64,000 bases of DNA from a phage, in the sequence record PZ534511.1, one strand, 5' to 3'. How positions within the stretch are numbered: the stretch's first letter is position 1; each line of letters starts with the position of its first letter. Both the position numbers and the translations under genes were made by a program. The notes beneath the pieces were generated by a model. That model did no database searches. It saw only the letters and a list, made by a program, of their open reading frames with translations, and was not told the origin of the DNA. This document shows, in pieces, positions 1,375-54,104 of the stretch.

Positions 1375-1695
1375 TTATTCAGAGAAAACATCGTTCACAA
1401 TAGCGATCACAATGCCGCCCACCTTGTCACGGTCAACAATGCACAAATCACCATAGATCATGTGGTAGTCTGGATGATCTTTCACGGAATAGTCAATGAG
1501 TGTCTTCTTATCGTCCAGCTTTTTGACTTCCATGGTCATTGTAATGAATTGATCGTTAAATGCACTATTGCGGAAGATCATTACCTGGCCGCCTTGACAT
1601 CCAGTGATCTCAACTTCCACGCCGTCTACGATCTGACCATCAAAGAAATAAAGATTATTGGCGGGTATAAACATGATCATTGCTCCTTTTTGCAC
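1375..1695 (-). CDS. hypothetical protein
   Basis: Track ORF 106 aa; RBS AAAGGAG before ATG; preceded by a copy of the 45 bp promoter-hairpin repeat. Confidence 0.5.
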   Translation of the reverse strand: MQKGAMIMFIPANNLYFFDGQIVDGVEVEITGCQGGQVMIFRNSAFNDQFITMTMEVKKLDDKKTLIDYSVKDHPDYHMIYGDLCIVDRDKVGGIVIAIVNDVFSE

Positions 1696-1718
1696 TGATT
1701 ATTTTAACAGGGTTTAAA

Positions 1719-1763
1719 TTTACTTTATTGATGGTCCTGGAGTCAAGACCATCTAAAAATAAA
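1719..1763 (-). repeat. 45 bp intergenic promoter-hairpin repeat, copy 1 (GATGGTC..GACCATC variant)
   Basis: Near-identical to copies at 5426-5470 and 6059-6103; contains TTGACT -35-like element and TAAAYT -10-like element on the minus strand; stem carries a compensatory C>T / G>A change. Confidence 0.7.
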
Positions 1764-1765
1764 TT

Positions 1766-2035
1766 TTACAGGCCTACAATCTCTTTGATTCGTTTAACTG
1801 CTGCCTCAGCGCCTTGGGGGTAGAAATTATGATAACCAATCACGCGGGTAATACTGATCGCCACCTGATGATCTTCATAATACCCCTTGAATATTTCTTG
1901 ACCATCAACCAGCACAGCAATTTTTTCTTCTTTTTTGAAGTTAATAACGCGGATATTGTTGCTCATTTTGTTTCTCCTTTTGGAACTTTGTCTATGTGGT
2001 GGGGGAGTGTCTCCCCGTTGATTGTTATTATCCAT
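1766..2035 (-). CDS. hypothetical protein (probable start at internal Met near 1966, MSNNIRVINF...)
   Basis: Track ORF; internal ATG preceded by AAAAGGAGAAAC RBS; promoter TTGCAA-16-GATAAT and GGGGAG..CTCCCC UTR hairpin upstream. Confidence 0.5.
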   Translation of the reverse strand: MDNNNQRGDTPPPHRQSSKRRNKMSNNIRVINFKKEEKIAVLVDGQEIFKGYYEDHQVAISITRVIGYHNFYPQGAEAAVKRIKEIVGL

Positions 2036-5425: not shown

Positions 5426-5470
5426 CAGTGTAAAGTTTACTTTATTGATGGCCCTGGAGTCAAGGCCATC
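5426..5470 (-). repeat. 45 bp intergenic promoter-hairpin repeat, copy 2
   Basis: TTTACTTTATTGATGGCCCTGGAGTCAAGGCCATCTAAAAATAAA; identical to copy 3. Confidence 0.7.
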
Positions 5471-5482
5471 TAAAAATAAATT

Positions 5483-5824
5483 TTACTCGTTTTCTTCCAG
5501 CTCTGAAAGCTCTTCTTTCATTTCTTCCAGCTCTGTCTGCAATTCCTGGTATTCTTCATCGTCCTCAATATCCAGGCTGTCGATGTAGTCGCTAAATCCG
5601 CAGCGGTAAGCGATAGGATCTAACTCCTTGAGGATACGCGACGGAAGAAAAGAAATGTTTCCGATCATAATTTCGCCGTAGATCTCGTCTAACCATTCAT
5701 CATAGTTTTCGTCGTACTTGTCCTCGTCGATTTCAAAGTTATCGATCTTATTCTCAAGGTCTGCGATCTGTTTTTTCAGTTCAGCGATCTGCATAGCTTT
5801 TTCTGCGGCGGTCATAGTAGTCAT
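5483..5824 (-). CDS. hypothetical highly acidic coiled-coil early protein (113 aa)
   Basis: Track ORF; Asp/Glu very abundant (EELQTELEEMKEELSELEENE); driven by consensus promoter at 5875-5902. Confidence 0.55.
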   Translation of the reverse strand: MTTMTAAEKAMQIAELKKQIADLENKIDNFEIDEDKYDENYDEWLDEIYGEIMIGNISFLPSRILKELDPIAYRCGFSDYIDSLDIEDDEEYQELQTELEEMKEELSELEENE

Positions 5825-13823: not shown

Positions 13824-14188
13824 TATTTGTCTCCTTGTTCTTCGTTAGTGTTTGCCGTATGTGCAAACCCTGCTTGAATTAATTTGTCCTGAACTTGAGC
13901 CAACAGCCCCATTGCAAAACTTGTAGTCCCAGAGAGGGCCATTAGCATATCTCGTTGTTGAGCTACCCAACCTAAGGCATAGTCCAAACGACGATATTTT
14001 TCTTCTTCACGCAGAGCCTGAAATAATTGTTCAGCCTCCGGTTGTTGTGTGAGCTCCTGAAGTCTTCCCATGAAAGAAGAAAGCACTAGCAAAAGAGACA
14101 CTTGATCTTTACTTAACCCTAAGAAAAATTCTTGAGGTTGTTCTTGCTCGTTCATTGCAACCGACGTTTGATCGTTCATTTGTTCCAT
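13823..14188 (-). CDS. hypothetical protein
   Basis: Track ORF 121 aa; start overlaps the stop of the upstream gene. Confidence 0.45.
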   Translation of the reverse strand: MEQMNDQTSVAMNEQEQPQEFFLGLSKDQVSLLLVLSSFMGRLQELTQQPEAEQLFQALREEEKYRRLDYALGWVAQQRDMLMALSGTTSFAMGLLAQVQDKLIQAGFAHTANTNEEQGDK

Positions 14189-14271
14189 TATGGAATCTCC
14201 GATTTTATTTGAACAACATAGAAGGAGACACTATTTTAGCATCCCCTTCTGCAAATTACAATAGGTATTTG

Positions 14272-14517
14272 TTAGCCAATCACTTCAAAAGTTCCCCAAT
14301 TCCCGTCTAGCAGGCAGGTGATCGGATCCCCATCGTCGTCAAAGATTTCAAAGTTTTCAGCATCCAGGATGTGGTCCTCGAACACAATACTCTCGTCGCC
14401 ACCACCAGAAATAACAGCGTATTCCTTACCTTGAGTCAAGTTTTGACACCCTTTGCCACCAAAACCTACTTCCACACAACGTACTTTCTGTCCTGCGCGA
14501 GCAACTGCTTCAGCCAT
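14272..14517 (-). CDS. hypothetical protein
   Basis: Track ORF 81 aa; RBS AGGAGACCTTAAG. Confidence 0.45.
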   Translation of the reverse strand: MAEAVARAGQKVRCVEVGFGGKGCQNLTQGKEYAVISGGGDESIVFEDHILDAENFEIFDDDGDPITCLLDGNWGTFEVIG

Positions 14518-14534
14518 CTTAAGGTCTCCTGATA

Positions 14535-14855
14535 TTAATCGTCAAGTTCAAAATAGATTTTAACAGCTTCATCAAAGATTGGAATCCCGATGTTGTTGAT
14601 AAGCTGCCAAACTACCATATCTTTACCTGGGTCTGGGAGAATGTCAACCTTTCTCCATGCGCTGTATATCCAGTTTGGACCACCTTCTGCACTAACTGGC
14701 AGATTTTCACCAGCCTCCTGCAGATACTTATACAGCAAAAGATATTCTGGATACTCTAGAACACTGTCCTCTGTAGTATATAGCAGTTCACGGTATACTT
14801 TTAAAAACCCTGCTGGGGTGATGTTTTCAGTCTTCATTTGCTGCTTCTCCTGCAT
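14535..14855 (-). CDS. hypothetical protein
   Basis: Track ORF 106 aa. Confidence 0.45.
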   Translation of the reverse strand: MQEKQQMKTENITPAGFLKVYRELLYTTEDSVLEYPEYLLLYKYLQEAGENLPVSAEGGPNWIYSAWRKVDILPDPGKDMVVWQLINNIGIPIFDEAVKIYFELDD

Positions 14856-15219
14856 TCATCAGATCTGCCATAGCGTCACCCACGAAGAGAACAACCACAT
14901 CGTTGACAGCGTCAGCATCATCTTTATTGACGTTGCTGAATTTAGGACACACAGCAATGATCATATAGACACCGTTACCAACCTGAACTGTCCGTGTGGT
15001 GCACATCATGGCGGTATTTGTGCCTTCTTTGAAGGCGAAGCCTTGAAGACGCTCCTCTAAAGTGTTACCGGTAGATTTCAGAAGCGCCAGCTCGTCCAAG
15101 TCATAGATGATATCTCCGGAAGTTAGTGTTGCCTTGCCATCAGACACCATAATAACTCCATCAGCACCGTCAAGCTTAGAGGCTTCAAAGATATCAATAT
15201 CCCAAATATTTTTCATCAC
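14827..15219 (-). CDS. hypothetical protein
   Basis: Track ORF 130 aa. Confidence 0.45.
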   Translation of the reverse strand: MMKNIWDIDIFEASKLDGADGVIMVSDGKATLTSGDIIYDLDELALLKSTGNTLEERLQGFAFKEGTNTAMMCTTRTVQVGNGVYMIIAVCPKFSNVNKDDADAVNDVVVLFVGDAMADLMNAGEAANED

Positions 15220-15536
15220 GCTTCCTCGTCGTCTAAGGAGTTGAAGATTTCACCGAAGTATTCTAAGACTTCTAGCTCCCGTGTGGTGCAGAAAACACAG
15301 TCACCGTTGTCATCCTCGATAACGGCCTCTTTACCCAGCACATCTACTTCAAGTTTATCGTTCAACAGGACGGCCCCTGTGTAAACTTTGTCAGCTGTGC
15401 AGTCCCGAAAAGCGGAGTCCTTCTCCAGATAGTCTGGCTTAACCTTGGCTTTAATTCGTTGATATTGTTTGGTCATTGCTATGGTCTCCTTTTTCTTAGA
15501 TGGGGCCATTATATCTGGCCCCATCTTTCTTGTCAA
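15216..15536 (-). CDS. hypothetical protein, paralogue family A (FRDCT / DxxGDxVxCT motifs)
   Basis: Shares AF[RK]DCT and DD[NE]GD[CS]V[FW]CT motifs with the adjacent 15540..15794 gene. Confidence 0.5.
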   Translation of the reverse strand: MTRKMGPDIMAPSKKKETIAMTKQYQRIKAKVKPDYLEKDSAFRDCTADKVYTGAVLLNDKLEVDVLGKEAVIEDDNGDCVFCTTRELEVLEYFGEIFNSLDDEEA

Positions 15537-15539
15537 GTA

Positions 15540-15794
15540 TTAATGTTCAGGTTTTACAAAAACCACTTCGTTAACGGTGCACCAGACAGAATCTCCTTCA
15601 TCATCTTTAAAGGTAAGGCACTGGGCTGAGTTTTCCAGCTCATCAATCTCTTCTTGTGATAAAGGAGCCCCTTCTTCCAAAAGGGCTTTTACTAAAGGGT
15701 TCTCACAAAACTCTGCTTCATAAATAGCACCAAGCGTGCAATCTTTAAAAGCTCGGTCATTTGCAACGCATGCTGGTTTCAACATGATTTTCAT
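15540..15794 (-). CDS. hypothetical protein, paralogue family A
   Basis: See 15216..15536; tandem paralogue. Confidence 0.5.
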   Translation of the reverse strand: MKIMLKPACVANDRAFKDCTLGAIYEAEFCENPLVKALLEEGAPLSQEEIDELENSAQCLTFKDDEGDSVWCTVNEVVFVKPEH

Positions 15795-15870
15795 TTTAGC
15801 AGTCTCCTCAATTATTTAAAAATCAACTCTCTGTTTGTGTGAAGCATCTTATATCTAATCTTACTTCTTG

Positions 15871-16269
15871 TCAATGACTATTTTCAATCAGCCACACAGG
15901 GTCGAGGTAAATTTGTTGGCGTGTTGCCCAATGACAAACTTCATTGTACGTCTGAACCTCTTTGTCTGTCAATTCACGAATAGGCTCATCTATACCCTCA
16001 TTTTTGTGGTAATCCCATTCTGCGTCTATCTCCCACAGCCATGACTTGTTGTCACCACGCTTACGCACACAGAAGTCACCAGGGCGGCCTGCCAGTGCAT
16101 TTAAGAACTCGTTCTCCACTCGCTCCTGGAGAATACTGAGGAGCAAAACGTTGGAGCATGATCGTAAAATATGCTTCAGCTCACAGTCATCGATCTCAAC
16201 TTCGATACGTTGTTTGACTGTGTGGGTACCTTTTACTAACATTCTACCTCCTCTAAACGAACTCTGCAA
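15871..16269 (-). CDS. hypothetical protein
   Basis: Track ORF 132 aa. Confidence 0.45.
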   Translation of the reverse strand: MQSSFRGGRMLVKGTHTVKQRIEVEIDDCELKHILRSCSNVLLLSILQERVENEFLNALAGRPGDFCVRKRGDNKSWLWEIDAEWDYHKNEGIDEPIRELTDKEVQTYNEVCHWATRQQIYLDPVWLIENSH

Positions 16270-16447
16270 GGGTTGTGTTGTTCACTGCACCACAGTAAAT
16301 GGAGTATCCCAGCCCATTAGAGTGCAGAAACCACGGAGTGCCGAAATTATCTTTCACGTAGACATCGCCGTTGCTTGTAAAGGGCCAATATTCTTCACCA
16401 AGGGTGAAATACCTACTCATACCCTCAGCCAGATACTTTACTTTCAT
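16253..16447 (-). CDS. hypothetical protein, paralogue family B
   Basis: Shares the pattern W[FY][IL]xH..NG.Y.IY...L..FV with 16444..16671 and the C-terminus of 16668..17042. Confidence 0.45.
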   Translation of the reverse strand: MKVKYLAEGMSRYFTLGEEYWPFTSNGDVYVKDNFGTPWFLHSNGLGYSIYCGAVNNTTLAEFV

Positions 16448-16671
16448 AGGTCCTCTTCAACAGCTACAAACTTGGCAAGCAGGGTGGTTCCGTAGATATG
16501 ATACTCACCGTTTGCCAGATGGGAGATAAACCAGGCAATCCCTTCCTCGTCTTTAATCATCTTGTTTGCACGATCTTTATCGTAATAAACCTCGTAGGTC
16601 TTTCCTTCTTTAAAGAAGGACAGGTCTGTCATCTTTTCTTCTACAAAAGTAGCTTTAACCAAAGTTGTCAT
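16444..16671 (-). CDS. hypothetical protein, paralogue family B
   Basis: See 16253..16447. Confidence 0.45.
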   Translation of the reverse strand: MTTLVKATFVEEKMTDLSFFKEGKTYEVYYDKDRANKMIKDEEGIAWFISHLANGEYHIYGTTLLAKFVAVEEDL

Positions 16672-17042
16672 TGATCGGTCTCCTTCTTGTTAAGTCTGAA
16701 TACTGCAATAATAGCATTCCCAAGGTGCAGTGTCAAATCATTTCCAAGATACCACAACATTCCACGGTCATCTTTAATGAAAGGGTAACAATCTGGTGCC
16801 TTCCAGACATTGTACACTTTCCCAACCTGAAAGAAATCAGGCCCTGTTGGGATTTTGGTGCCAGGCCACACTTGAGATACCTGAACACACTCCACCTGCA
16901 TAATAACAGGAATAGTCATGGATGTAAATGTTTTTGTTGGTTCTACTACCATAAAAGTCTCCTCTTTGCTCAACAACACTTCCATGTGTTGATAGTTTAC
17001 ATTAGTGACAATCACCCCAATTACGACCACACAAGTATTCAC
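16668..17042 (-). CDS. hypothetical protein, paralogue family B
   Basis: C-terminal half matches family B; overlaps the end of DNA polymerase exon 2. Confidence 0.45.
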   Translation of the reverse strand: MNTCVVVIGVIVTNVNYQHMEVLLSKEETFMVVEPTKTFTSMTIPVIMQVECVQVSQVWPGTKIPTGPDFFQVGKVYNVWKAPDCYPFIKDDRGMLWYLGNDLTLHLGNAIIAVFRLNKKETDQ

Positions 17043-17355
17043 CTGTGATCTGGAACGGGACTCCCATCATTTTAGAAGCTTGCCAGAAGCAATGCACCAC
17101 CATTTCACCCACAGGGCTCCAGATAAGTTCAAGCTTTCCGTCATCGTTCAGGATAGGATCGTACACCGTGTTTCCGTCTCTGTCAACCACTTCGTTTCCG
17201 TCCTCATCCTTGCGTGCCTTTTTGTACTTATGACCGTCGAACACATGAAGTTTGGCTTCCTGCTCTGCCTTAAATGCTTCCAATTCTTCAATTGTGTCGA
17301 AGGTGTACACAGTCTTATACTTAGGCGTGTCAGGGACCTGAAGTTGGTACTCATC
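17002..17355 (-). CDS. DNA polymerase (family A), exon 2 (C-terminal part carrying the DE of motif C)
   Basis: Begins GAU GAG (DEYQLQV...), which joined to exon 1 ...YYH gives HDEYQLQV, matching T7 gp5 motif C VHDEIQV; C-terminus GRNWGDCH matches T7 gp5 GPNWAICH. Confidence 0.75.
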   Translation of the reverse strand, partial: DEYQLQVPDTPKYKTVYTFDTIEELEAFKAEQEAKLHVFDGHKYKKARKDEDGNEVVDRDGNTVYDPILNDDGKLELIWSPVGEMVVHCFWQASKMMGVPFQITGEYLCGRNWGDCH

Positions 17356-18198
17356 CATCTGTTCAGGTAGGTCGTTAAGCTACCCCGCACCATTACGTGC
17401 ATAGCCATACAGTTTCCTGTATGGATCGGACTACCTCACTGCCTTGGTAACAAGGCACCTCCCATTTCGACCGCACTTGCTGGCCTACTCTACTCGCTTC
17501 TTCACACCAACCTGTGTTGGAGCTATGCTTTCGATAGTCTCTGAACGTTACTACCAGGTGTAGTTTTTAGAGATATGTTTCCACTGTCTTCTTTGCTTTA
17601 TAGCCCTGACGGTCTCATAAGGATATCCAAGATCCCTAATCTCGCATTGTCGTAGACCACTCTGCAACAGTTCGCAAATCTCTATTACCTCATCTTCTGT
17701 CAGCACAGCGTTGGCATTATACTCACCAACTGGCCTTACTCTGAGGTCATTATCATAGGCGTGCTTGATATTTCCACCAGGGGTGGTCCATTCCAGGTTC
17801 CAGTATGCATTGTTGTACTTATTCCCATCCTTATGGTTCACCCATGTGAGCCTTTCAGGATCCGGGTTTGATACAAAGCATTCAGCAACCAGGTGGTGGA
17901 CACCTTTTGTGCACTGCTTCCCCTCGATTAGCATGGTTACGCAAAGGTAACCTCTACCATTATCAAAACAAAACATTGTTGTATGATCACGTTTCGATAA
18001 AGGTATTGTTCCATCATCAAACACGGTATACCCGTGATAATCAGCTGTTCTAGCCATTTTAACTACACCCCTTTAGTCTTCGCTGCGGATTAGCATATTG
18101 AGCTTTTACCATACTCAGGTGTAAAAGTCAACTTAGCTTTCCCGTCAATTAAAGAGGTTATTCGACATAGATCACTCTATGAAGCCACAATGTTATTT
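17356..18198 (-). mobile_element. group I self-splicing intron interrupting the DNA polymerase gene, with HNH homing endonuclease ORF in the P6 region
   Basis: Minus-strand RNA carries conserved elements P (AAUUGACGGGAAAG, 18137-18150), Q (AAUCCGCAGC, 18082-18091), R (GUUCAGAGACUA, 17535-17546), S (UAGUCC, 17428-17433), and a P9-like hairpin with GAAA loop (17406-17424); 5' exon ends in U, with GUGG available as guide sequence; intron ends in G. Confidence 0.75.
17551..18057 (-). CDS. HNH homing endonuclease (intron-encoded)
   Basis: Motif WVNHKDGNKYNNAYWNLEW (HNH core); C-terminal helix-turn-helix-like region; lies between intron elements Q and R. Confidence 0.8.
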   Translation of the reverse strand: MARTADYHGYTVFDDGTIPLSKRDHTTMFCFDNGRGYLCVTMLIEGKQCTKGVHHLVAECFVSNPDPERLTWVNHKDGNKYNNAYWNLEWTTPGGNIKHAYDNDLRVRPVGEYNANAVLTEDEVIEICELLQSGLRQCEIRDLGYPYETVRAIKQRRQWKHISKNYTW

Positions 18199-20622
18199 AT
18201 GGTAATAGATAATACGACGGACACCTTCATCGTACCACCCACGCTTCACCATTTGGTGGTGCATGAGTATCCCAACTAAGTCACACAGCGATGCACCACC
18301 ATTCTGTTGGTATGCATTAAGTAAAGAGTGTTTAGATCGGGTCCAGATAGCATGACCATCAAAAGAGTAGATAAACTTCTTACCCGTTGCTTCCCAGAAT
18401 TTCTCCAGATCCTCTTTACGCCCCTTAAGACCAGGGTTGGCATCCCAAAGTGCATCGATTACCCTTTGTCCCAACTCTGGAGAGATGTCCAGCATATCTG
18501 CAACTTTATCTTTTTGTGCCCCGTACATAACCCCATACGTGATAGGTTTACCGTCGTTACGAGACACCTCTCTGCCTGCTACTTTTGTATATGCCTCAGC
18601 ATTGTTTTGGTGTGCGTCCCCGTTACTTACAACATCATAATACAAGCCGTTGTCGAACTCAAAGGCACCCCAAGCCCCGATAAGCTGCTCTAAGTTGGAC
18701 CCGTCAATACCGATCTGAAAGTATCCAGGAGGAACACCCCACAGACTACGCATCTCTTTACCCATAACCACTTTAGGAGATGGTTTAGGCATGTTTGCAC
18801 AAATACTGTGTTTCTGTCGTGAAGTGTTTGTTAACCCAGAACTTTTAGCAGGAAGCTTATGGTCAATCTTCAAACGTGGGTGATTAAGAAGACCAGTATC
18901 AACCTTATCCTCCTTGATTGGATCAAGGACCGATCTGCGGTTTCGCAATGATAACCACAAGACGATATCTTTAGCCATCTCTCCGTTCAATTTTTCAAGA
19001 TTCGGGCATAGGTGTCCAAACGTATCTTTCAGTTGCGGAGAAGTAATAAGTGCCCTAGCTTTTCTACGTATTTTCCCGAATACTTCCTTTTTAATCCTTT
19101 CGGAGTTAGGAAAGCTTCGGAACTTGTGCACGGTTGTCTGGAACTTAGCATCAGTTTTGTTCCAGAAGTTGATAATCAGGTCACAATACTCTGACTCTAA
19201 AAGCTCGTCCATATATGCATATACTCGTGCATCAACATCTGCATCAGGTAGAGCTTTCTTCTTGCTGTCTTTAGTTACATCCTTAGTTCTCCACATTGTC
19301 GGAAGCCAACCAGCACTGATCAGGTATCGCTTAATGTCGTCCTGGTTGCTGATTTTCATAGGTATCTTGCAGTCCGGCATTCGCTTCTGCTGTAGATCAC
19401 TTATTGCCTGATCCATTAGCTCTTTAGGTAAAGGTTGTGGTGTGGAGGTGCCCTTAATATAGCCTCTCAAGAAATCAGCCATCTTATCGGGGTCTTTGCA
19501 GCCCATCTCTTCACACCATTTTATCCCTATCTTACTGACATCTCCTGTAGAGGTAAATGCTCGCTTAGGTGGGGCTTTGAACTCTAAAGCGCTCATGTCT
19601 ACAGGGTAGCCAAGCTTATCTTTTAACCATTTCCAGCCATTATTGGAAATTGTCCCATCTTGGTTGAACGGCTTTTCAGGGAATTTAGGCCGCTGAGATA
19701 TTGATAACTCTTTTAAAGGAAGTTGAGGTTCAACACGATCAGCGATCTCTTTCATCCACGCATCACAGCGGTCACGTAAAGCAATAGCCCCGTCTATGTC
19801 GAAATACACACCCTGACGGGCCTGCAGCTCCATCAGGAAGTGCTGCAGCATGCCTCGGCGTAATGCGTTCTTCCAGGTGATCTTCTTGAACCCTTTCGGC
19901 TTCTCTTTGGCAGGATCGTACATAAAGTTCTGCATGTCAGATTTGCCGTAGAATACACCTTTTGATTCCGCTACCAGCTCTTTCCAGAGCAGCTCCTGGA
20001 TGATAACGTCCTCGAATACACGATCCACATACTTCCACAACGGAAGATCGCGCCAGTCATCAATTTGAACTTTCTGGTTACCAAGGGCGTAGCCCCATGC
20101 CATAAGGCCGTGAGGACCAACAGGCTGCATTTTCTTAGTAACCGGGTTGAATACAGAGTCCGGACAACCTTTTGGTAAAGGGCGATCAGGCCACAAAATT
20201 CGACTCATCGCCAACGTATCAAACAGGTTAACCTGGTGGTCGTTGATAGTCCCCATGCATTTAGGATCACGGAACATATCAAAATGAATACCGGATAATC
20301 TTTCCATCAGCATAAAGTCATAACTGTAGCAGTTATGGCAGTTCAAAGCTGTTGGTGACCAGTCGGAATTGCCTGTAAGCCAACCTTCCAACTCCGAAAA
20401 ATCTGCTATGCGAACTTCAAAATCTTTATAAAGAGTTTTCTTTGCCAGAATGAAGTTCTTGGCCTTTTCTATATCCTCCTCGGAGTAGTGTGTGCGGTCA
20501 TTTAGAGGAAGGAACAGCATAAAACGGTTCTTATTCAGCTCTTTAAACAGACCGCAGTGATAATAAAGATCTGGGTCTTCCAAAAGCCCAGAGGCCTCCA
20601 GATCGAAGCACCAATTACTCAT
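18199..20622 (-). CDS. DNA polymerase (family A, T7 gp5-like), exon 1 with 3'-5' exonuclease and polymerase motifs A/B
   Basis: N-terminal FDLEASGL (Exo I, DxE); motif B RNDGKPITYGVMYGAQ; ORF stops 2 codons after ...YYH, before motif C, which is supplied by exon 2. Confidence 0.8.
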
Positions 20623-21353
20623 ACTGTCCCCTCCTGTTTCTTCTCAGCATTCTTTCTTGCAGCTATTGCATCGTCCCTATTCTTGAAATACCCAAGGCAT
20701 TTCCTTTTACCATCTACATAAATTCTGGCTACCCATCTTTCATGGGTTTTATCCCAATTCACCCCTGAGCAACCGCTGGTATTATTATACTGCACGGCTC
20801 TTCCACTCTTGTGCGAAAAACCATTATCTTCGAAGAACTTTCTTGCCCACTCTGCCTCTTCAAAAGTTCTGTACTGGCCTAGCCAGACCCTTTCCCCTAC
20901 AGAGTCTGTGCCTTGAGCTATCCATGCATCTCTTTCTTCAGAATAGTGCACCCCGACCCTGCCAGATTTGTTGTTGCTACGAGGTATCTTGCAACTTTTC
21001 TTTTTGTTATCTGTGGGCTCGAGTAGTTGCAAATTTTGAATACTGTTATCAGCCACACCACCTGTTTCCCTTATCTCCTTGATGTGGTCAACCTCATACC
21101 CTTCCGGTACAGGGCCGTTAAACATTTCCCAGATTATGACGTGGGCACCTTTAGTGCAATGCTTTCCTAGACTAACTACAGGCCTGCCATCAGCATCTTG
21201 CCCCTTGTCAGCTCTGGAGCCTGCTGAAGTTTTAACATATCCTACACCGCTACCTGCCAGAATGTCTATCTTCCAAAAAAGATTTTGACCGTCATACTCC
21301 AGTATCTCTGACCACAGGTGGTTGGCTACACAGTGGTCTCTGAACTCGTTCAT
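20619..21353 (-). CDS. HNH endonuclease with C-terminal AP2 DNA-binding domain (free-standing homing endonuclease)
   Basis: HNH core GYEVDHIKEI..NSIQNLQLL; C-terminal AP2-like segment VGVHYSEERDAWIAQ..WLGQYRTFEEAEWARKF; 4 nt overlap with the polymerase start. Confidence 0.75.
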   Translation of the reverse strand: MNEFRDHCVANHLWSEILEYDGQNLFWKIDILAGSGVGYVKTSAGSRADKGQDADGRPVVSLGKHCTKGAHVIIWEMFNGPVPEGYEVDHIKEIRETGGVADNSIQNLQLLEPTDNKKKSCKIPRSNNKSGRVGVHYSEERDAWIAQGTDSVGERVWLGQYRTFEEAEWARKFFEDNGFSHKSGRAVQYNNTSGCSGVNWDKTHERWVARIYVDGKRKCLGYFKNRDDAIAARKNAEKKQEGTV

Positions 21354-39041: not shown

Positions 39042-39308
39042 ATGGTATTTATGGCAACAGAGGTAGTAATTAAAGCTGAACGCCCAGTTAAAAAAGCTAT
39101 CAACACGTTCCCTGTAGGAACCATTGTGAGCATGATTACAGAGTCAGGCCGTGTATCTACACTGCTAATCGTGAAATCTGCATGCTCATCTTGTGTGTGG
39201 GCATACGATCTTGACGAGAAAGAACTGAAAGATTTTGTTGGGGAGCTGAAAGCAACAGAGCTTGACGCTCGTATCGAAGTATTTGGTGAAACTATGAAGG
39301 AAGAGTAA
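39042..39308 (+). CDS. hypothetical protein
   Basis: Track ORF 88 aa; RBS AGAGAGGATGG. Confidence 0.45.
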   Translation: MVFMATEVVIKAERPVKKAINTFPVGTIVSMITESGRVSTLLIVKSACSSCVWAYDLDEKELKDFVGELKATELDARIEVFGETMKEE

Positions 39309-39571
39309 TGACTACAAAAATCACTATTGCAGAACCAAAAGCTAACACGCAACCTATCGAAAAGTTTAAATGCGGTGAGGTGGTAACATTCACACCGGAT
39401 AATGAAGATGCTAAGATTTTTGCCATGGTCACAGCCGAGTGGATGTGTGACAATACCACACAGGTGCTGCGTTTTGACACCTATCTTACAGATGAAATCA
39501 GGAACGACAAGATTGTGACTGGTGTGGATACTGAGATTATTTTCTACAAGAGCTTTTTAGAGGGTTTCTGA
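39308..39571 (+). CDS. hypothetical protein
   Basis: Track ORF 87 aa; start overlaps the upstream stop. Confidence 0.45.
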   Translation: MTTKITIAEPKANTQPIEKFKCGEVVTFTPDNEDAKIFAMVTAEWMCDNTTQVLRFDTYLTDEIRNDKIVTGVDTEIIFYKSFLEGF

Positions 39572-39572
39572 T

Positions 39573-39806
39573 ATGGCAAAAATTCGTAAATTATCCAGCA
39601 ATCAGGTTGTGAAAGACTTTGAATCTGGAGAGATTTTGTATGTTCGTGATGCAGATGATGAAGGTGAAGATCTTGTTATGCTGGTAGGGCACGCTGAAGA
39701 CGGATGCATACAGGCTGTTTTTCTTGAAACAGCTATGGTGCACTGGATAGAGCTGGACCTGAAAGCACGAAAACCTAAAGCAGAAATCCTGATTTACGAA
39801 GATTAA
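39573..39806 (+). CDS. hypothetical protein
   Basis: Track ORF 77 aa. Confidence 0.45.
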   Translation: MAKIRKLSSNQVVKDFESGEILYVRDADDEGEDLVMLVGHAEDGCIQAVFLETAMVHWIELDLKARKPKAEILIYED

Positions 39807-42577: not shown

Positions 42578-42606
42578 TTGACACCAACACCAGATCTATG
42601 TATGAT
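42578..42606 (+). promoter_or_regulatory. sigma70-like promoter (TTGACA-17-TATGAT)
   Basis: Hexamers read directly; overlaps the first ATG of the track ORF, so the gene probably starts at the RBS-supported Met near 42637. Confidence 0.5.
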
Positions 42607-43044
42607 TATCTCACCAACCGAACAGAGGAGATCGTCATGGATAATCTTGCGGATGTAAATGTCGAAATTGTTAAACTAAAGTTCTTAGGCTTTCGAGACC
42701 CTTATTCTTTAACAGCTATACTAATGGACACTCACTTCACACCAGGTAAAGAGTACACTGCCTTCCGTTATATTTGCGGAGATCACGAATCAGCTTATAG
42801 TGTGAATACAAACCTCGGTGAGGGATATTTCATCAGAGATATCGCAGATCACTTGTGGGGTATGTGGGAGTTGGTGGAGGAAGAGAATAAATCCCTTCCT
42901 AAAGAGATTTGGGTGCACACCTTCCACACAGGTAAGTTTGGAGGTACGGAACATAAATCTATCCACTATGATGAAGAAAGTGCCATTAAACAACAAGCTG
43001 TGCTTGGTGGATCTGTAGAAAAATTTGTTAAATGCGAGGACTGA
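42598..43044 (+). CDS. hypothetical protein (probable start about 42637, MDNLADV...)
   Basis: Internal ATG preceded by AGAGGAGATCGTC RBS. Confidence 0.5.
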   Translation: MYDYLTNRTEEIVMDNLADVNVEIVKLKFLGFRDPYSLTAILMDTHFTPGKEYTAFRYICGDHESAYSVNTNLGEGYFIRDIADHLWGMWELVEEENKSLPKEIWVHTFHTGKFGGTEHKSIHYDEESAIKQQAVLGGSVEKFVKCED

Positions 43045-51005: not shown

Positions 51006-52052
51006 TTAAGCATAAGATATAGTGATCCATTGACCATTTACAAGTTTTTGGATAGCACCTGTCCAGTAATCACCTTGATAAGGGTGTTTATAAGCGTAGT
51101 TACCAGAGCACATCACATGTCCAGGGTAGACTCTTGACTCTCTGTAGGTGGTTTTAAAACGGTTTGCTATCCTTACATCATCAACCCCTCTGCTAGGCAT
51201 AGGGATAGTAAGGTTACCGCTACTGTCTGCGCCGTTACCATTTACCCTGCGGACCACGTTTCTTCCACCAACTGTTGCATATTGGCCCCTGACGGTTTCA
51301 TCGTTACAATCAACTCTTCCACCTATTTGAGCGCTTCCGCAGGATTGTTGTCCATTAACAGTGGCTCTTGGTATCGTGACCGCATTGGCATTTGCAGAGG
51401 AACTTTTTGCATCGTTGCATTCAAGATTTCCTTGGATAGCCAGTCTTGCACGGTTGGCAGTTATAGCATTGAGCTTCATAGCTGAAAACACAGGCTGCCC
51501 ACCAGAAGGTTGAAATCTCCAACGGAACCCATCTATTTGGTGAGAAGGATCATCAAGGTCTGTGCCGTCAGCACCACCGATGTTGTCCATAATCCAGAAA
51601 TCCATCGTCGTCTTGTCTGGAGTTATGGTGGTATATATTGCCGCACTGTCTGTTGACGCAGATGCAAACTCGATTCTTTGAAGACCTAAAGTTTGAGTCT
51701 GAGTCATTATGTCTCCAGACTTGTCAACATATAGATCGTCCATTTCTTCAGGTGAGTATACATTGAGAACTTGACGTGCAGCAGCTTTGTCTGGAACGTC
51801 TGCTAGATTATTAGTGACCCTTAAGAATCTATTATCCCATCCTGGGACAACATCTTCTGTTAAATGCTTCAACCACGCAGAAAGCATGTGAAGTTCAAAG
51901 TTAACAACTTCACATGCCATTCTTTGTGTCATATCCCAACCTTTCAATCTCTCTTCTTTTTTTGGTTGAGATTTATTCAACTCTCCCGTATTTTCAAGCA
52001 CAACATCCTGATTGGCCCAAATATCAAGAGGGATAACTGGTTTAGTCATCAC
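51006..52052 (-). CDS. tail fibre protein, paralogue 2 (348 aa)
   Basis: N-terminus (PLDIWANQDVVL..KGWDMTQ) and C-terminus (QKLVNGQWITISYA) conserved with 53064..54104; 30 bp identical DNA at the 3' ends (51011-51040 vs 53069-53098). Confidence 0.6.
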   Translation of the reverse strand: MMTKPVIPLDIWANQDVVLENTGELNKSQPKKEERLKGWDMTQRMACEVVNFELHMLSAWLKHLTEDVVPGWDNRFLRVTNNLADVPDKAAARQVLNVYSPEEMDDLYVDKSGDIMTQTQTLGLQRIEFASASTDSAAIYTTITPDKTTMDFWIMDNIGGADGTDLDDPSHQIDGFRWRFQPSGGQPVFSAMKLNAITANRARLAIQGNLECNDAKSSSANANAVTIPRATVNGQQSCGSAQIGGRVDCNDETVRGQYATVGGRNVVRRVNGNGADSSGNLTIPMPSRGVDDVRIANRFKTTYRESRVYPGHVMCSGNYAYKHPYQGDYWTGAIQKLVNGQWITISYA

Positions 52053-53063: not shown

Positions 53064-54104
53064 CTATGCATAATTAACAGTGATCCATTGACCATTTACA
53101 AGTTTTTGTAAAGGTCCTGCCCAGTAGGTTGAACCACGCATCTCTTTTTTGTCACCGAAATGCCAGCCTGTGACAACGTAGCCGTTGCGGATTGGAGATT
53201 CAGAAACGCCGTCCACAAGTCTTGCACCGATTCTGATGTCTTGCACACCTGTCTGCGGGATAGTGATCGTTACATCACCGTTACCGTTAGCCGTCACTCC
53301 ATTCACGGAGCGCACCACATTTCTGTTACCGACAACACAGTGCTGGCTTCTTACAACCATACTGTCACAACTTGCACCACCATTAACATATACTGACCCA
53401 GCCGTCAACTGACTAGCCACATTACAGTTGGTGAATGTTGCTGTATTGCTGATAGTAAGGTTATTGCACCTCATGTTATCGACAACTTCAACATTGCCTA
53501 CCACTTTCAACAGCGCACGATTAGCCGTGATCGCGTTAAGGTACATCAAAGTGAACTCTGGATTAATATCCGGCTGAGTTGGCTGGAATCTCCAACGAAA
53601 CGCATCTACTGTAGATGTACCACCATCATCAAACGACCCGGTATTATCACTTAACCCAAAGTCGAGAGTTGTCTTATCTGGGCCAATAGTTGTCTCTATC
53701 CAAGCCTTATCTGTCTCGGCAGCTTTAAAGTTGATACGTTGCAACCCCAAGGGGCCTGTCATTGTATCACCTGTAACTTTTACATACCTGGCGTCTGCCT
53801 CTTCCTTAGTGATAATCCCAAGGTTTCTACGGGCAACAGGGATGTTCAAAAGATCGCTCAAGTTATTATCACGTACCAGATAACGGCCTTCTTGAGCGGG
53901 GATCTGCTCGTCAGCAATGTATTTTGCCCAAGTTCCGAGCATATTGAAAATATAGTTAAGTTCTTCACAGGATGGCTTTTGACCAAGATCCCAACCTTTT
54001 CTCCACAAATCATCAATCGGGCGTAGCCTGTTCTGTCTGTGGGTGTTAGGCAGAACCTGATCCTCCTCTGCCCAAATCTCTAATGGAAAACTAGGTTTTG
54101 ACAT
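53064..54104 (-). CDS. tail fibre protein, paralogue 1 (346 aa)
   Basis: See 51006..52052; conserved termini, divergent central region. Confidence 0.6.
   Translation of the reverse strand: MSKPSFPLEIWAEEDQVLPNTHRQNRLRPIDDLWRKGWDLGQKPSCEELNYIFNMLGTWAKYIADEQIPAQEGRYLVRDNNLSDLLNIPVARRNLGIITKEEADARYVKVTGDTMTGPLGLQRINFKAAETDKAWIETTIGPDKTTLDFGLSDNTGSFDDGGTSTVDAFRWRFQPTQPDINPEFTLMYLNAITANRALLKVVGNVEVVDNMRCNNLTISNTATFTNCNVASQLTAGSVYVNGGASCDSMVVRSQHCVVGNRNVVRSVNGVTANGNGDVTITIPQTGVQDIRIGARLVDGVSESPIRNGYVVTGWHFGDKKEMRGSTYWAGPLQKLVNGQWITVNYA

Follow-up and report, generated by a model that had tools for sequence, protein, structure and literature searches.

Gp54 of phage Bas11 belongs to a small set of phage proteins whose direct recognition by an immune sensor of bacteria is structurally resolved. 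It is a nonessential, nonstructural protein of 66 amino acids (aa) and of unknown function, and its promoter is active in uninfected cells (PMC11578894). Gp54 directly binds and activates the antitoxin domain of CapRelSJ46, a fused toxin-antitoxin defense protein; mutants of Gp54 that escape CapRelSJ46 carry G24D and W43*, and Gp54 homologs with three substitutions fail to trigger it (PMC11578894). The same authors speculated that Gp54 may inhibit another defense, and they described its fold as very rare, with SH3 as the nearest fold (PMC11578894). Here, we analyzed a 64,000-nucleotide (nt) stretch of phage DNA (sequence record PZ534511.1, referred to as the window), in which two arrays of small paralogous genes lie next to the DNA polymerase gene. 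Family A comprises A1 and A2, and family B, which is predicted to have a divergent variant of the Gp54 fold, comprises B1, B2, and B3 (Table 1).

Positions 14000 to 20700 of the window share 96.6% identity with Escherichia phage FFH2 and ~96% with many other rV5-like myoviruses, and by this measure its source is a Vequintavirus, i.e., an rV5-like myovirus of Escherichia coli. All genes from ~12.5 to 36 kb of the window are on the minus strand, so both arrays are transcriptionally downstream (3') of the polymerase gene. An earlier sequence-only reading had placed them upstream of the polymerase, which is wrong in the direction of transcription; the arrays follow the C-terminal polymerase exon in the order ORF224 (B3), ORF223 (B2), ORF222 (B1), ORF221 (unrelated), ORF220 (A2), and ORF219 (A1) of the rV5 numbering. 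Judged from their sequences, the five A and B genes are real protein-coding genes conserved throughout the genus. The rV5 genome paper makes no mention of these paralogs (PMC3606486), and the database records all label them hypothetical. In the sources that could be searched, neither a link of the Vequintavirus array to the Gp54 fold nor the extent of the superfamily appears to have been described.

Two families of small tandem paralogs

Large phage genomes commonly carry small tandem paralogs to which no function has been assigned. Paralogy was tested here with profile hidden Markov models (HMMs) built from orthologs and searched against all 436 open reading frames (ORFs) of at least 40 aa on both strands of the window, so that most targets were decoys. 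For family A, the A1 model retrieved A2 at an E value of 7e-7 and the A2 model retrieved A1 at 1.4e-6, with the runner-up at E > 1. Likewise, A1 and A2 were aligned by hhalign at E 1.7e-7 and by blastp among all window ORFs at 1.6e-5, and their PHROG cross-hits were reciprocal (~1e-5 to 1e-4). Fourteen columns are invariant over the A1 and A2 groups, including the patterns D.AF.DC...Y and DD.GD.V.CT. These comparisons indicate clearly that the paralogy of family A is real.

Family B is held together by B2. The B1 model matched B2 at 1.9e-4, the B2 model matched B3 at 2.2e-4, and the B3 model matched B2 at 6.7e-5, each being the best match among real ORFs. The only better match of the B2 model was to its own antisense ORF (16498..16674, plus strand), a likeness that was rejected as an artifact of a palindrome at 16603..16620. 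Pairwise hhalign gave a probability of 75% for B2-B3 and an E value of 1e-3 for B1-B2, versus E values of at least 0.014 for all 42 nonfamily pairs among ten neighboring genes. The direct HMM link between B1 and B3 is weak (0.09 and 0.9), and B2 connects the two, as do two further paralogs in a divergent relative (L023), which matched the B2 model at 1.6e-9 and 1.9e-7 and the B3 model at 2e-4 and 9e-4, the second copy also matching the B1 model at 7e-5. Nine columns are invariant across 28 B sequences, namely, the initiator Met and F20, G23, Y26, D41, G44, W47, A66, and F68 (B2 numbering), and the resulting pattern, F..G..Y / D..G..W / A.F, is common to B1 as well. Identity between paralogs is 25 to 35%, and B1, B2, and B3 fall into PHROGs of their own that are specific to the genus (12802, 12623, and 12922). 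The stop/start overlaps of B3/B2 and B2/B1 are ATGA, which is typical of translational coupling. In both families, paralogy beyond chance is real on this sequence evidence, as the sequence-only reading had proposed; the similarity was significant and reciprocal for A1-A2, B1-B2, and B2-B3 in the HMM searches and by hhalign. Within each family the copies are adjacent, as that reading had described; families A and B are separated from each other by an unrelated gene (15871..16242).

The perfect 18-bp palindrome within B2, TCCTTCTTTAAAGAAGGA, encodes the conserved SFFKEG motif.

The extents given to A1 (15216..15536) and B3 (16668..17042) in the sequence-only reading did not stand, as both starts lie further downstream. 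For A1, the TTG at 15536 was rejected because the -35 hexamer of a promoter matching the consensus at 12 of 12 positions starts at this base. An upstream ATG at 15509 was also rejected; the promoter occupies 15536..15508 and is followed by a strong ribosome-binding site (RBS), AAGGAGAC, and the ATG at 15476. The same start (MTKQYQ) is used in the annotation of phage isim and in several database orthologs. For B3, the GTG at 17042 was rejected, as the longer ORF overlaps the C-terminal polymerase exon. The start at 16952 has an RBS (AGAGGAGAC), and phrog_12922 covers residues 31 to 124 of the long ORF. A 285-nt B3 is called in 6 of 7 annotated relatives checked, and the rV5 record calls a longer ORF.

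The gene that follows A1, g14827, overlaps it by TGATG, again typical of translational coupling. The two genes have an identical 12-nt sequence, TGCACCACACGG, encoding CTTR at residue 73 of g14827 and residue 71 of A1 (numbered from the ATG further upstream, at 15509), with a codon-shuffle P value of ~0.012. In a natural in-frame fusion, the N-terminal portion of A1 continues into the C-terminal portion of g14827, with the junction exactly at TGCACCACACGG; it occurs in two metagenomic contigs (protein P0043; L017, 2501..2896, Logan ERR13033386), where the block loses one gene. No significant alignment of g14827 with family A was obtained (hhalign E 0.014 to 0.034). That g14827 is a third A gene, as the 12-nt motif and the natural fusion suggest, is only possible.

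Predicted folds and the likeness to Gp54

The predicted model of B2 is a small beta-barrel of six strands in which the beta1-beta2 loop is prominent, and it scored a predicted local distance difference test (pLDDT) value of 92.6 (90.9 to 92.6 over five models). The only solved structure that clearly resembles this model is that of Bas11 Gp54 (PDB 9AXB). By alignment, B3 would consist of the same barrel, extended at its N terminus and with a long insertion between beta1 and beta2. In the best, nonsignificant hhalign alignment, FFKEG23 of B2 lies opposite IFKKG24 of Gp54, and G44IAW47 of B2 lies opposite G40LTW43. G23 and W47, which are thereby placed opposite G24 and W43 of Gp54, are both invariant in the 28 B sequences. 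Gp54 is encoded by a Drexlerviridae siphovirus, in contrast to the Vequintavirus myovirus that carries the B genes, and here the predicted fold occurs in three coupled tandem genes and in dispersed copies.

Several points weigh against this reading. Pfam PF25180 ("Phage antiviral trigger protein Gp54") was founded on Gp54, whose Bas11 sequence was used here, and B1, B2, and B3 had no match to PF25180 at E ≤ 1 in Pfam (gathering score, 27 bits); Bas11 Gp54, the positive control, scored 116 bits (E 6e-34). Alignment of family B with Gp54 by hhalign was not significant with a single-sequence Gp54 profile, nor even with a six-sequence one (E ≥ 0.17), and the B models found no link to Gp54 among the ORFs of Bas11. 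The kinship is thus argued from one predicted model and two short motifs. Models were made for B2 and A2, and the fold of B1, B3, and g14272 was assigned by alignment. Furthermore, because near-identical Gp54 homologs fail to trigger CapRelSJ46, likeness of fold says little about trigger activity, and the analogy supplies no biochemical activity for family B. Overall, family B appears to be a divergent variant with the Gp54 fold and not a member of PF25180, and it is unlikely that its proteins share the binding of CapRelSJ46.

For family A, the A2 model suggests a five-stranded SH3-like barrel. Confidence in it was moderate (pLDDT 78), two of the five models fell below 50, and its structural matches were generic SH3-like folds only, all of which count against this assignment. 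Small SH3-like beta-barrels such as SH3, Mib/HERC2, the retroviral integrase C-terminal domain, and KOW have no sequence relationship to family A. In contrast to them, A2 carries a two-helix insertion of ~25 residues, and family A lacks a proline-peptide or nucleic acid-binding signature, has a strongly negative net charge (approximately -11), and has two invariant Cys residues.

Relatives of family B were found beyond the array. A broadened B-superfamily profile matched g14272 at E 1.1e-4 among the 436 window ORFs (runner-up, 0.24; hhalign, 71.5%, E 3.6e-5), and with a second, enlarged profile this support dropped to E 0.0054 (27%); g14272 is a probable distant member of the superfamily. When the B2 model was compared with BFVD by Foldseek, many small uncharacterized coliphage proteins were retrieved, often two or three per phage. 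Among them was a 78-aa protein of Vequintavirus isim (isim_172), encoded between nrdD and nrdG, i.e., outside the window. This protein belongs to phrog_3249 (E 1.6e-26), was aligned with family B by hhalign at 87% (E 3.8e-6) and by the B HMM at 26 bits, and matched the PHROG of B2 at 0.003 and that of B1 at 0.008. Conversely, phrog_3249 was matched by B2 at 5.7e-4 and by B1 at 0.013, so that family B and the phrog_3249-type proteins are homologous at the profile level. The latter have the F..GK.Y / D.G..WF motifs and the same predicted fold (Foldseek template modeling score, ~0.7) as B1 and B2. Unlike the B array, the phrog_3249 protein of rV5 and isim is a single dispersed copy in a nucleotide-metabolism module. 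On these profile matches, the same genome would hold at least two further B members, g14272 and the nrdD-nrdG gene.

A Seunavirus protein, SSE121 gp057, was also matched (5.8e-7). As these relatives from other coliphages and SSE121 lie beyond the genus, the B superfamily is older than Vequintavirus. When 1.84 billion representative proteins were searched exhaustively with a profile, 15 matches were obtained in all, some of them repeat-protein false positives; one of these, the Vgb-lyase/propeller protein P0088, was rejected as a superfamily member. The matches included single-domain relatives, two-domain proteins (one a DUF3310 fusion on a phage contig), and proteins with 4 to 6 tandem copies of the domain, and the superfamily motifs are F/W-T-x-G-K-x-Y and D-D-x-G-x-x-W. 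Members are present in many phages, encoded singly, in tandem, or as repeats inside one protein. Elsewhere in the window, residues 45 to 97 (...FTPGKEYTAF...) of a 148-aa ORF (42598..43044, plus strand) are weakly B-like (hhalign, 13.7%, E 0.002) and may represent a further B-like domain.

Two other accounts of these relationships can be weighed against that of two separate families. The similarities could be a chance resemblance of unrelated short ORFs, given that single B-pair scores are modest (16 to 29 bits) and that B1 and B3 do not match directly at a significant level. This has next to no probability, as the members are mutual best matches among real ORFs in a decoy-rich search, intermediate paralogs connect B1, B2, and B3, nine columns of family B are invariant, the three B genes lie side by side and show translational coupling, and a joint alignment yielded a confident common fold. 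For A1/A2 and B2/B3, chance resemblance is effectively refuted. Conversely, families A and B, g14272, and perhaps g14827 could form one small-barrel superfamily with GK.Y / DD.G motifs, such that six or seven of the ten post-polymerase genes would be one expanded family and not two. The B2 and A2 models have the same order of secondary structure elements (beta1, short helix, beta2, ...), SH3 is the fold nearest to Gp54 (PMC11578894), and the superfamily profile aligns with family A in the expected register (CT.GKVY/FT.GK.Y; DD.GD/DD.G) at hhalign E values of 0.002 to 0.003. In addition, the superfamily HMM matched the A1 ortholog of L023 at 0.0066 among 16 proteins, and g14272 is the best nonmember match for both families. 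The link between A and B is suggestive and consistent in register but not significant, and because it stayed at 11 to 14% hhalign probability, the two families were not merged; a single superfamily seems doubtful, if far from implausible.

Conservation, selection, and proposed role

A 3.2-kb block containing the arrays is present at ≥89% DNA identity in ~114 phage records, and in related genera the polymerase alone matches and other small genes are found in this place. Searches of 50,697 phage records with A2 and B2 (tblastn) returned Vequintavirus orthologs only. In a collection of 5.8 billion proteins, relatives were found only at ≥~75% identity on ~136-kb contigs, all orthologs being of the Vequintavirus type, and sequence searches of Pfam, NCBIfam, and PDB gave nothing significant. 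Gene-wide ratios of nonsynonymous to synonymous substitution rates (dN/dS), calculated by the Nei-Gojobori method over eight genomes, ranged from 0.018 for B3 to 0.164 for B2 (Table 1) and were not near 1. The orthologs are under purifying selection, and the genes are constrained. Gene-wide, the diversifying selection that the sequence-only reading had attributed to these genes is not supported by the dN/dS check that it had itself proposed, whereas its proposal of local duplication and divergence is borne out by the adjacent copies, the ATGA overlaps, the low identity between paralogs, the lineage-variable number of B genes, and the natural A1::g14827 fusion.

The B copy number is three here versus five in L023 (3930..6111; NCBI assembly GCA_012894635.1, 136.8-kb contig), a divergent Vequintavirus-like sequence. 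In L023, B3 and B2 are separated by two inserted genes, one Ead/Ea22-like (200 aa) and the other of 63 aa, and the DNA of the former matches that of lambdoid and Stx prophages. The phage collection contained no array closely related to that of L023 (best match, ~70% identity over 23%). In one B3 ortholog (P0057, Logan/ENA), the loop that precedes the DD.G motif contains an internal tandem duplication of 11 residues (APDCHPFIKEK / APNCYPFIKDD). In Bas51, B2 (L001, 5506..5673, MZ501111) is truncated after approximately residue 44 by a +1 G insertion in a G run.

The most likely role of the A and B proteins, as we infer it, is that of early, dispensable, protein-binding accessory factors. Old local duplications gave rise to the A and B genes, which host RNA polymerase would transcribe early from consensus promoters. 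Family B would supply translationally coupled single-domain proteins of 64 to 94 aa with a six-stranded barrel, mostly mildly acidic, and family A would supply very acidic SH3-like barrels, A1 from its own perfect sigma-70 promoter; the calculated pI is 4.2 to 5.0 for A1, A2, B1, and B2 and near neutral (6.5) for B3. Each barrel may be a small binding module for a host or defense protein. With the core residues (F, G, Y, D, G, W, A, and F) fixed and the paralog surfaces diverged, the copies would differ in their partners. As accessory factors, the proteins would each be dispensable under laboratory conditions. Like Gp54, they may be recognized by CapRel-like immune proteins, or they may act against defense.

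A host-interaction role is plausible because Gp54, the only solved structure clearly like B2, is bound by a host immune sensor. The proteins would also resemble Ocr as small, acidic products of dispensable, accessory genes; early expression is a feature of Ocr and is only predicted for the A and B genes, and this comparison is an analogy of lifestyle that makes no claim of shared fold or sequence. The Bas51 frameshift, if real, would mean that growth on E. coli K-12 does not require B2, as Bas51 is a viable BASEL phage; weighing against this, it could be a sequencing error, since it lies in a G run. We regard the structural and evolutionary description as highly probable, the functional part, which proceeds by analogy, as tentative and somewhat short of an even chance, and the explanation as a whole as slightly on the probable side.

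The role favored in the sequence-only reading was that of host-interaction proteins under diversifying (positive) selection, in which case the arrays would be an active arms-race locus. The paralogs have diverged to 25 to 35% identity and have kept their core residues, the number of B genes varies by lineage, the L023 array has received an ead/Ea22-like insertion, B2, the most variable gene, has the highest dN/dS, and fusion, internal-duplication, and frameshift variants occur, all of which would fit such a locus. However, dN/dS is 0.02 to 0.16 in all five genes, with constraint on B3 matching that on the polymerase, the ~114 genomes with ≥89% DNA identity have the same array, and the duplications predate the genus, so there is no ongoing turnover within it; an arms-race locus is accordingly unlikely. 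The B proteins could also be minor virion or assembly components, as the annotations of rV5 and isim label the B-like nrdD-nrdG gene a "putative minor capsid protein," and B2 weakly matches phrog_14592 ("virion structural protein") at E 0.055. This is very improbable: the genes lie in a replication module behind sigma-70 consensus promoters, the phrog_14592 match is not significant, the capsid annotation is by similarity only, and the term "minor capsid" is absent from the main text of the rV5 paper (PMC3606486). Furthermore, Gp54 is neither structural nor essential (PMC11578894). Early accessory binding proteins are preferred here over both alternatives.

The analysis suggests that the Gp54 fold occurs in tandem triplicate in widely used rV5-like E. 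coli phages (including BASEL Bas51 and Bas52) and that related domains are common and multicopy in coliphages. It yields testable candidates for what the barrel does and for which defense systems sense it or are blocked by it. A more far-reaching proposal is that the Gp54-type barrel is no peculiarity of a few Drexlerviridae phages but the fold of a large multicopy superfamily of early phage proteins, arranged in tandem, dispersed, or as intraprotein repeats, that bind or inhibit host defense proteins as a diversified set. We consider this quite unlikely. If it were true, the superfamily would include most of the small post-polymerase genes of Vequintavirus (B1 to B3, g14272, and possibly A1, A2, and g14827), and redundancy would let the phage drop any copy that triggers a CapRel-like sensor.

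Promoters and neighboring features

Table 1. Features of the array region, in order of transcription within each group (window coordinates)
Feature	Position	Strand	Length or sequence	rV5 homolog or family	dN/dS	Remarks
DNA polymerase C-terminal exon	17002..17358	-		phrog_8888 DNA polymerase (E 1.3e-58)	0.033	
B3	16668..16952	-	94 aa	ORF224	0.018	First gene after DNA polymerase
B2	16444..16671	-	75 aa	ORF223	0.164	Family B hub; predicted Gp54-like six-stranded beta-barrel
B1	16253..16447	-	64 aa	ORF222	0.10	Shortest family B member
Unrelated gene	15871..16242	-	123 aa	ORF221; phrog_6273	0.09	Separates B and A arrays
A2	15540..15794	-	84 aa, pI 4.2	ORF220	0.098	Predicted SH3-like barrel with helical insertion
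A1	15216..15476	-	86 aa, pI 4.3	ORF219	0.089	Corrected start; hhalign probability with A2, 93.8%
g14827	14827..15216	-	129 aa	ORF218		Possible very divergent third A-type gene
Gene between g14827 and g14272	14535..14837	-	100 aa	DUF7238; phrog_1451	0.028	Nearly invariant across the genus
g14272	14272..14517	-	81 aa	ORF216		Probable distant B-like paralog, outside the coordinates of the sequence-only reading
Putative sigma-70 promoter	16708..16736	-	TTGACA-17-TATTAT with TG			Near-consensus extended -10, 11/12
Putative sigma-70-type promoter	15846..15874	-	TTGACA-17-TAAGAT			Upstream of A2, 10/12
Putative sigma-70 promoter	15508..15536	-	TTGACA-17-TATAAT			Perfect, 12/12; between A2 and A1

According to the rV5 paper, rV5 promoters are sigma-70-like (PMC3606486). 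The predicted A1 promoter is the only 12/12 match in the window, where sites with at most one mismatch to the consensus numbered 9 versus 0.57 expected and promoter-like sites numbered 19 versus 8.0 expected. Both of its hexamers are kept in eight relatives. An inverted repeat of 9 to 11 bp (15498..15526) flanks its -10 box (GATGGGGCC ... GGCCCCATC), and the relatives retain the pairing of the arms by compensatory changes (in rV5, GATAGGACC / GGTCCTATC); the repeat may serve as an operator, or it may form a hairpin in the 3'-terminal part of the A2 transcript. The site upstream of A2 sits at the position of the regulatory feature "P220" in the rV5 record (DQ832317), and the third lies within the 3' end of B3, upstream of B2.

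The product of the gene between the arrays showed no similarity to family A or B by hhalign (E ≥ 0.08), and this gene is kept in relatives. The 100-aa gene between g14827 and g14272 matched Pfam DUF7238 at 30.8 bits (threshold, 27). The polymerase gene itself (17002..20622, minus strand) is disrupted by an insertion that contains a gene for an HNH homing endonuclease (17551..18057). Likewise, the polymerase of Bas51 (WalterGehring) is annotated as a joined coding sequence interrupted by an HNH homing endonuclease. Phages ECP32 and S127 BCL3 lack the insertion and have an uninterrupted polymerase gene, and Seunavirus relatives have up to three such insertions.

Other repeats were observed in the window. 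Three adjacent small ORFs of 88, 87, and 77 aa (39042..39806, plus strand), two of which are assigned to VOG5597 in isim, were considered as a third tandem family, which was not supported by single-sequence hhalign (E ≥ 0.03). Two genes of ~347 aa in the tail fiber region (51006..52052 and 53064..54104, minus strand) are clear paralogs (43% identity over 356 residues, E 2e-92). Short ORFs at 1680..1823 and 5445..5588 (plus strand) have a common 14-residue stretch (86% identity, E 2e-5), which probably reflects a repeated DNA element in a region of small genes.

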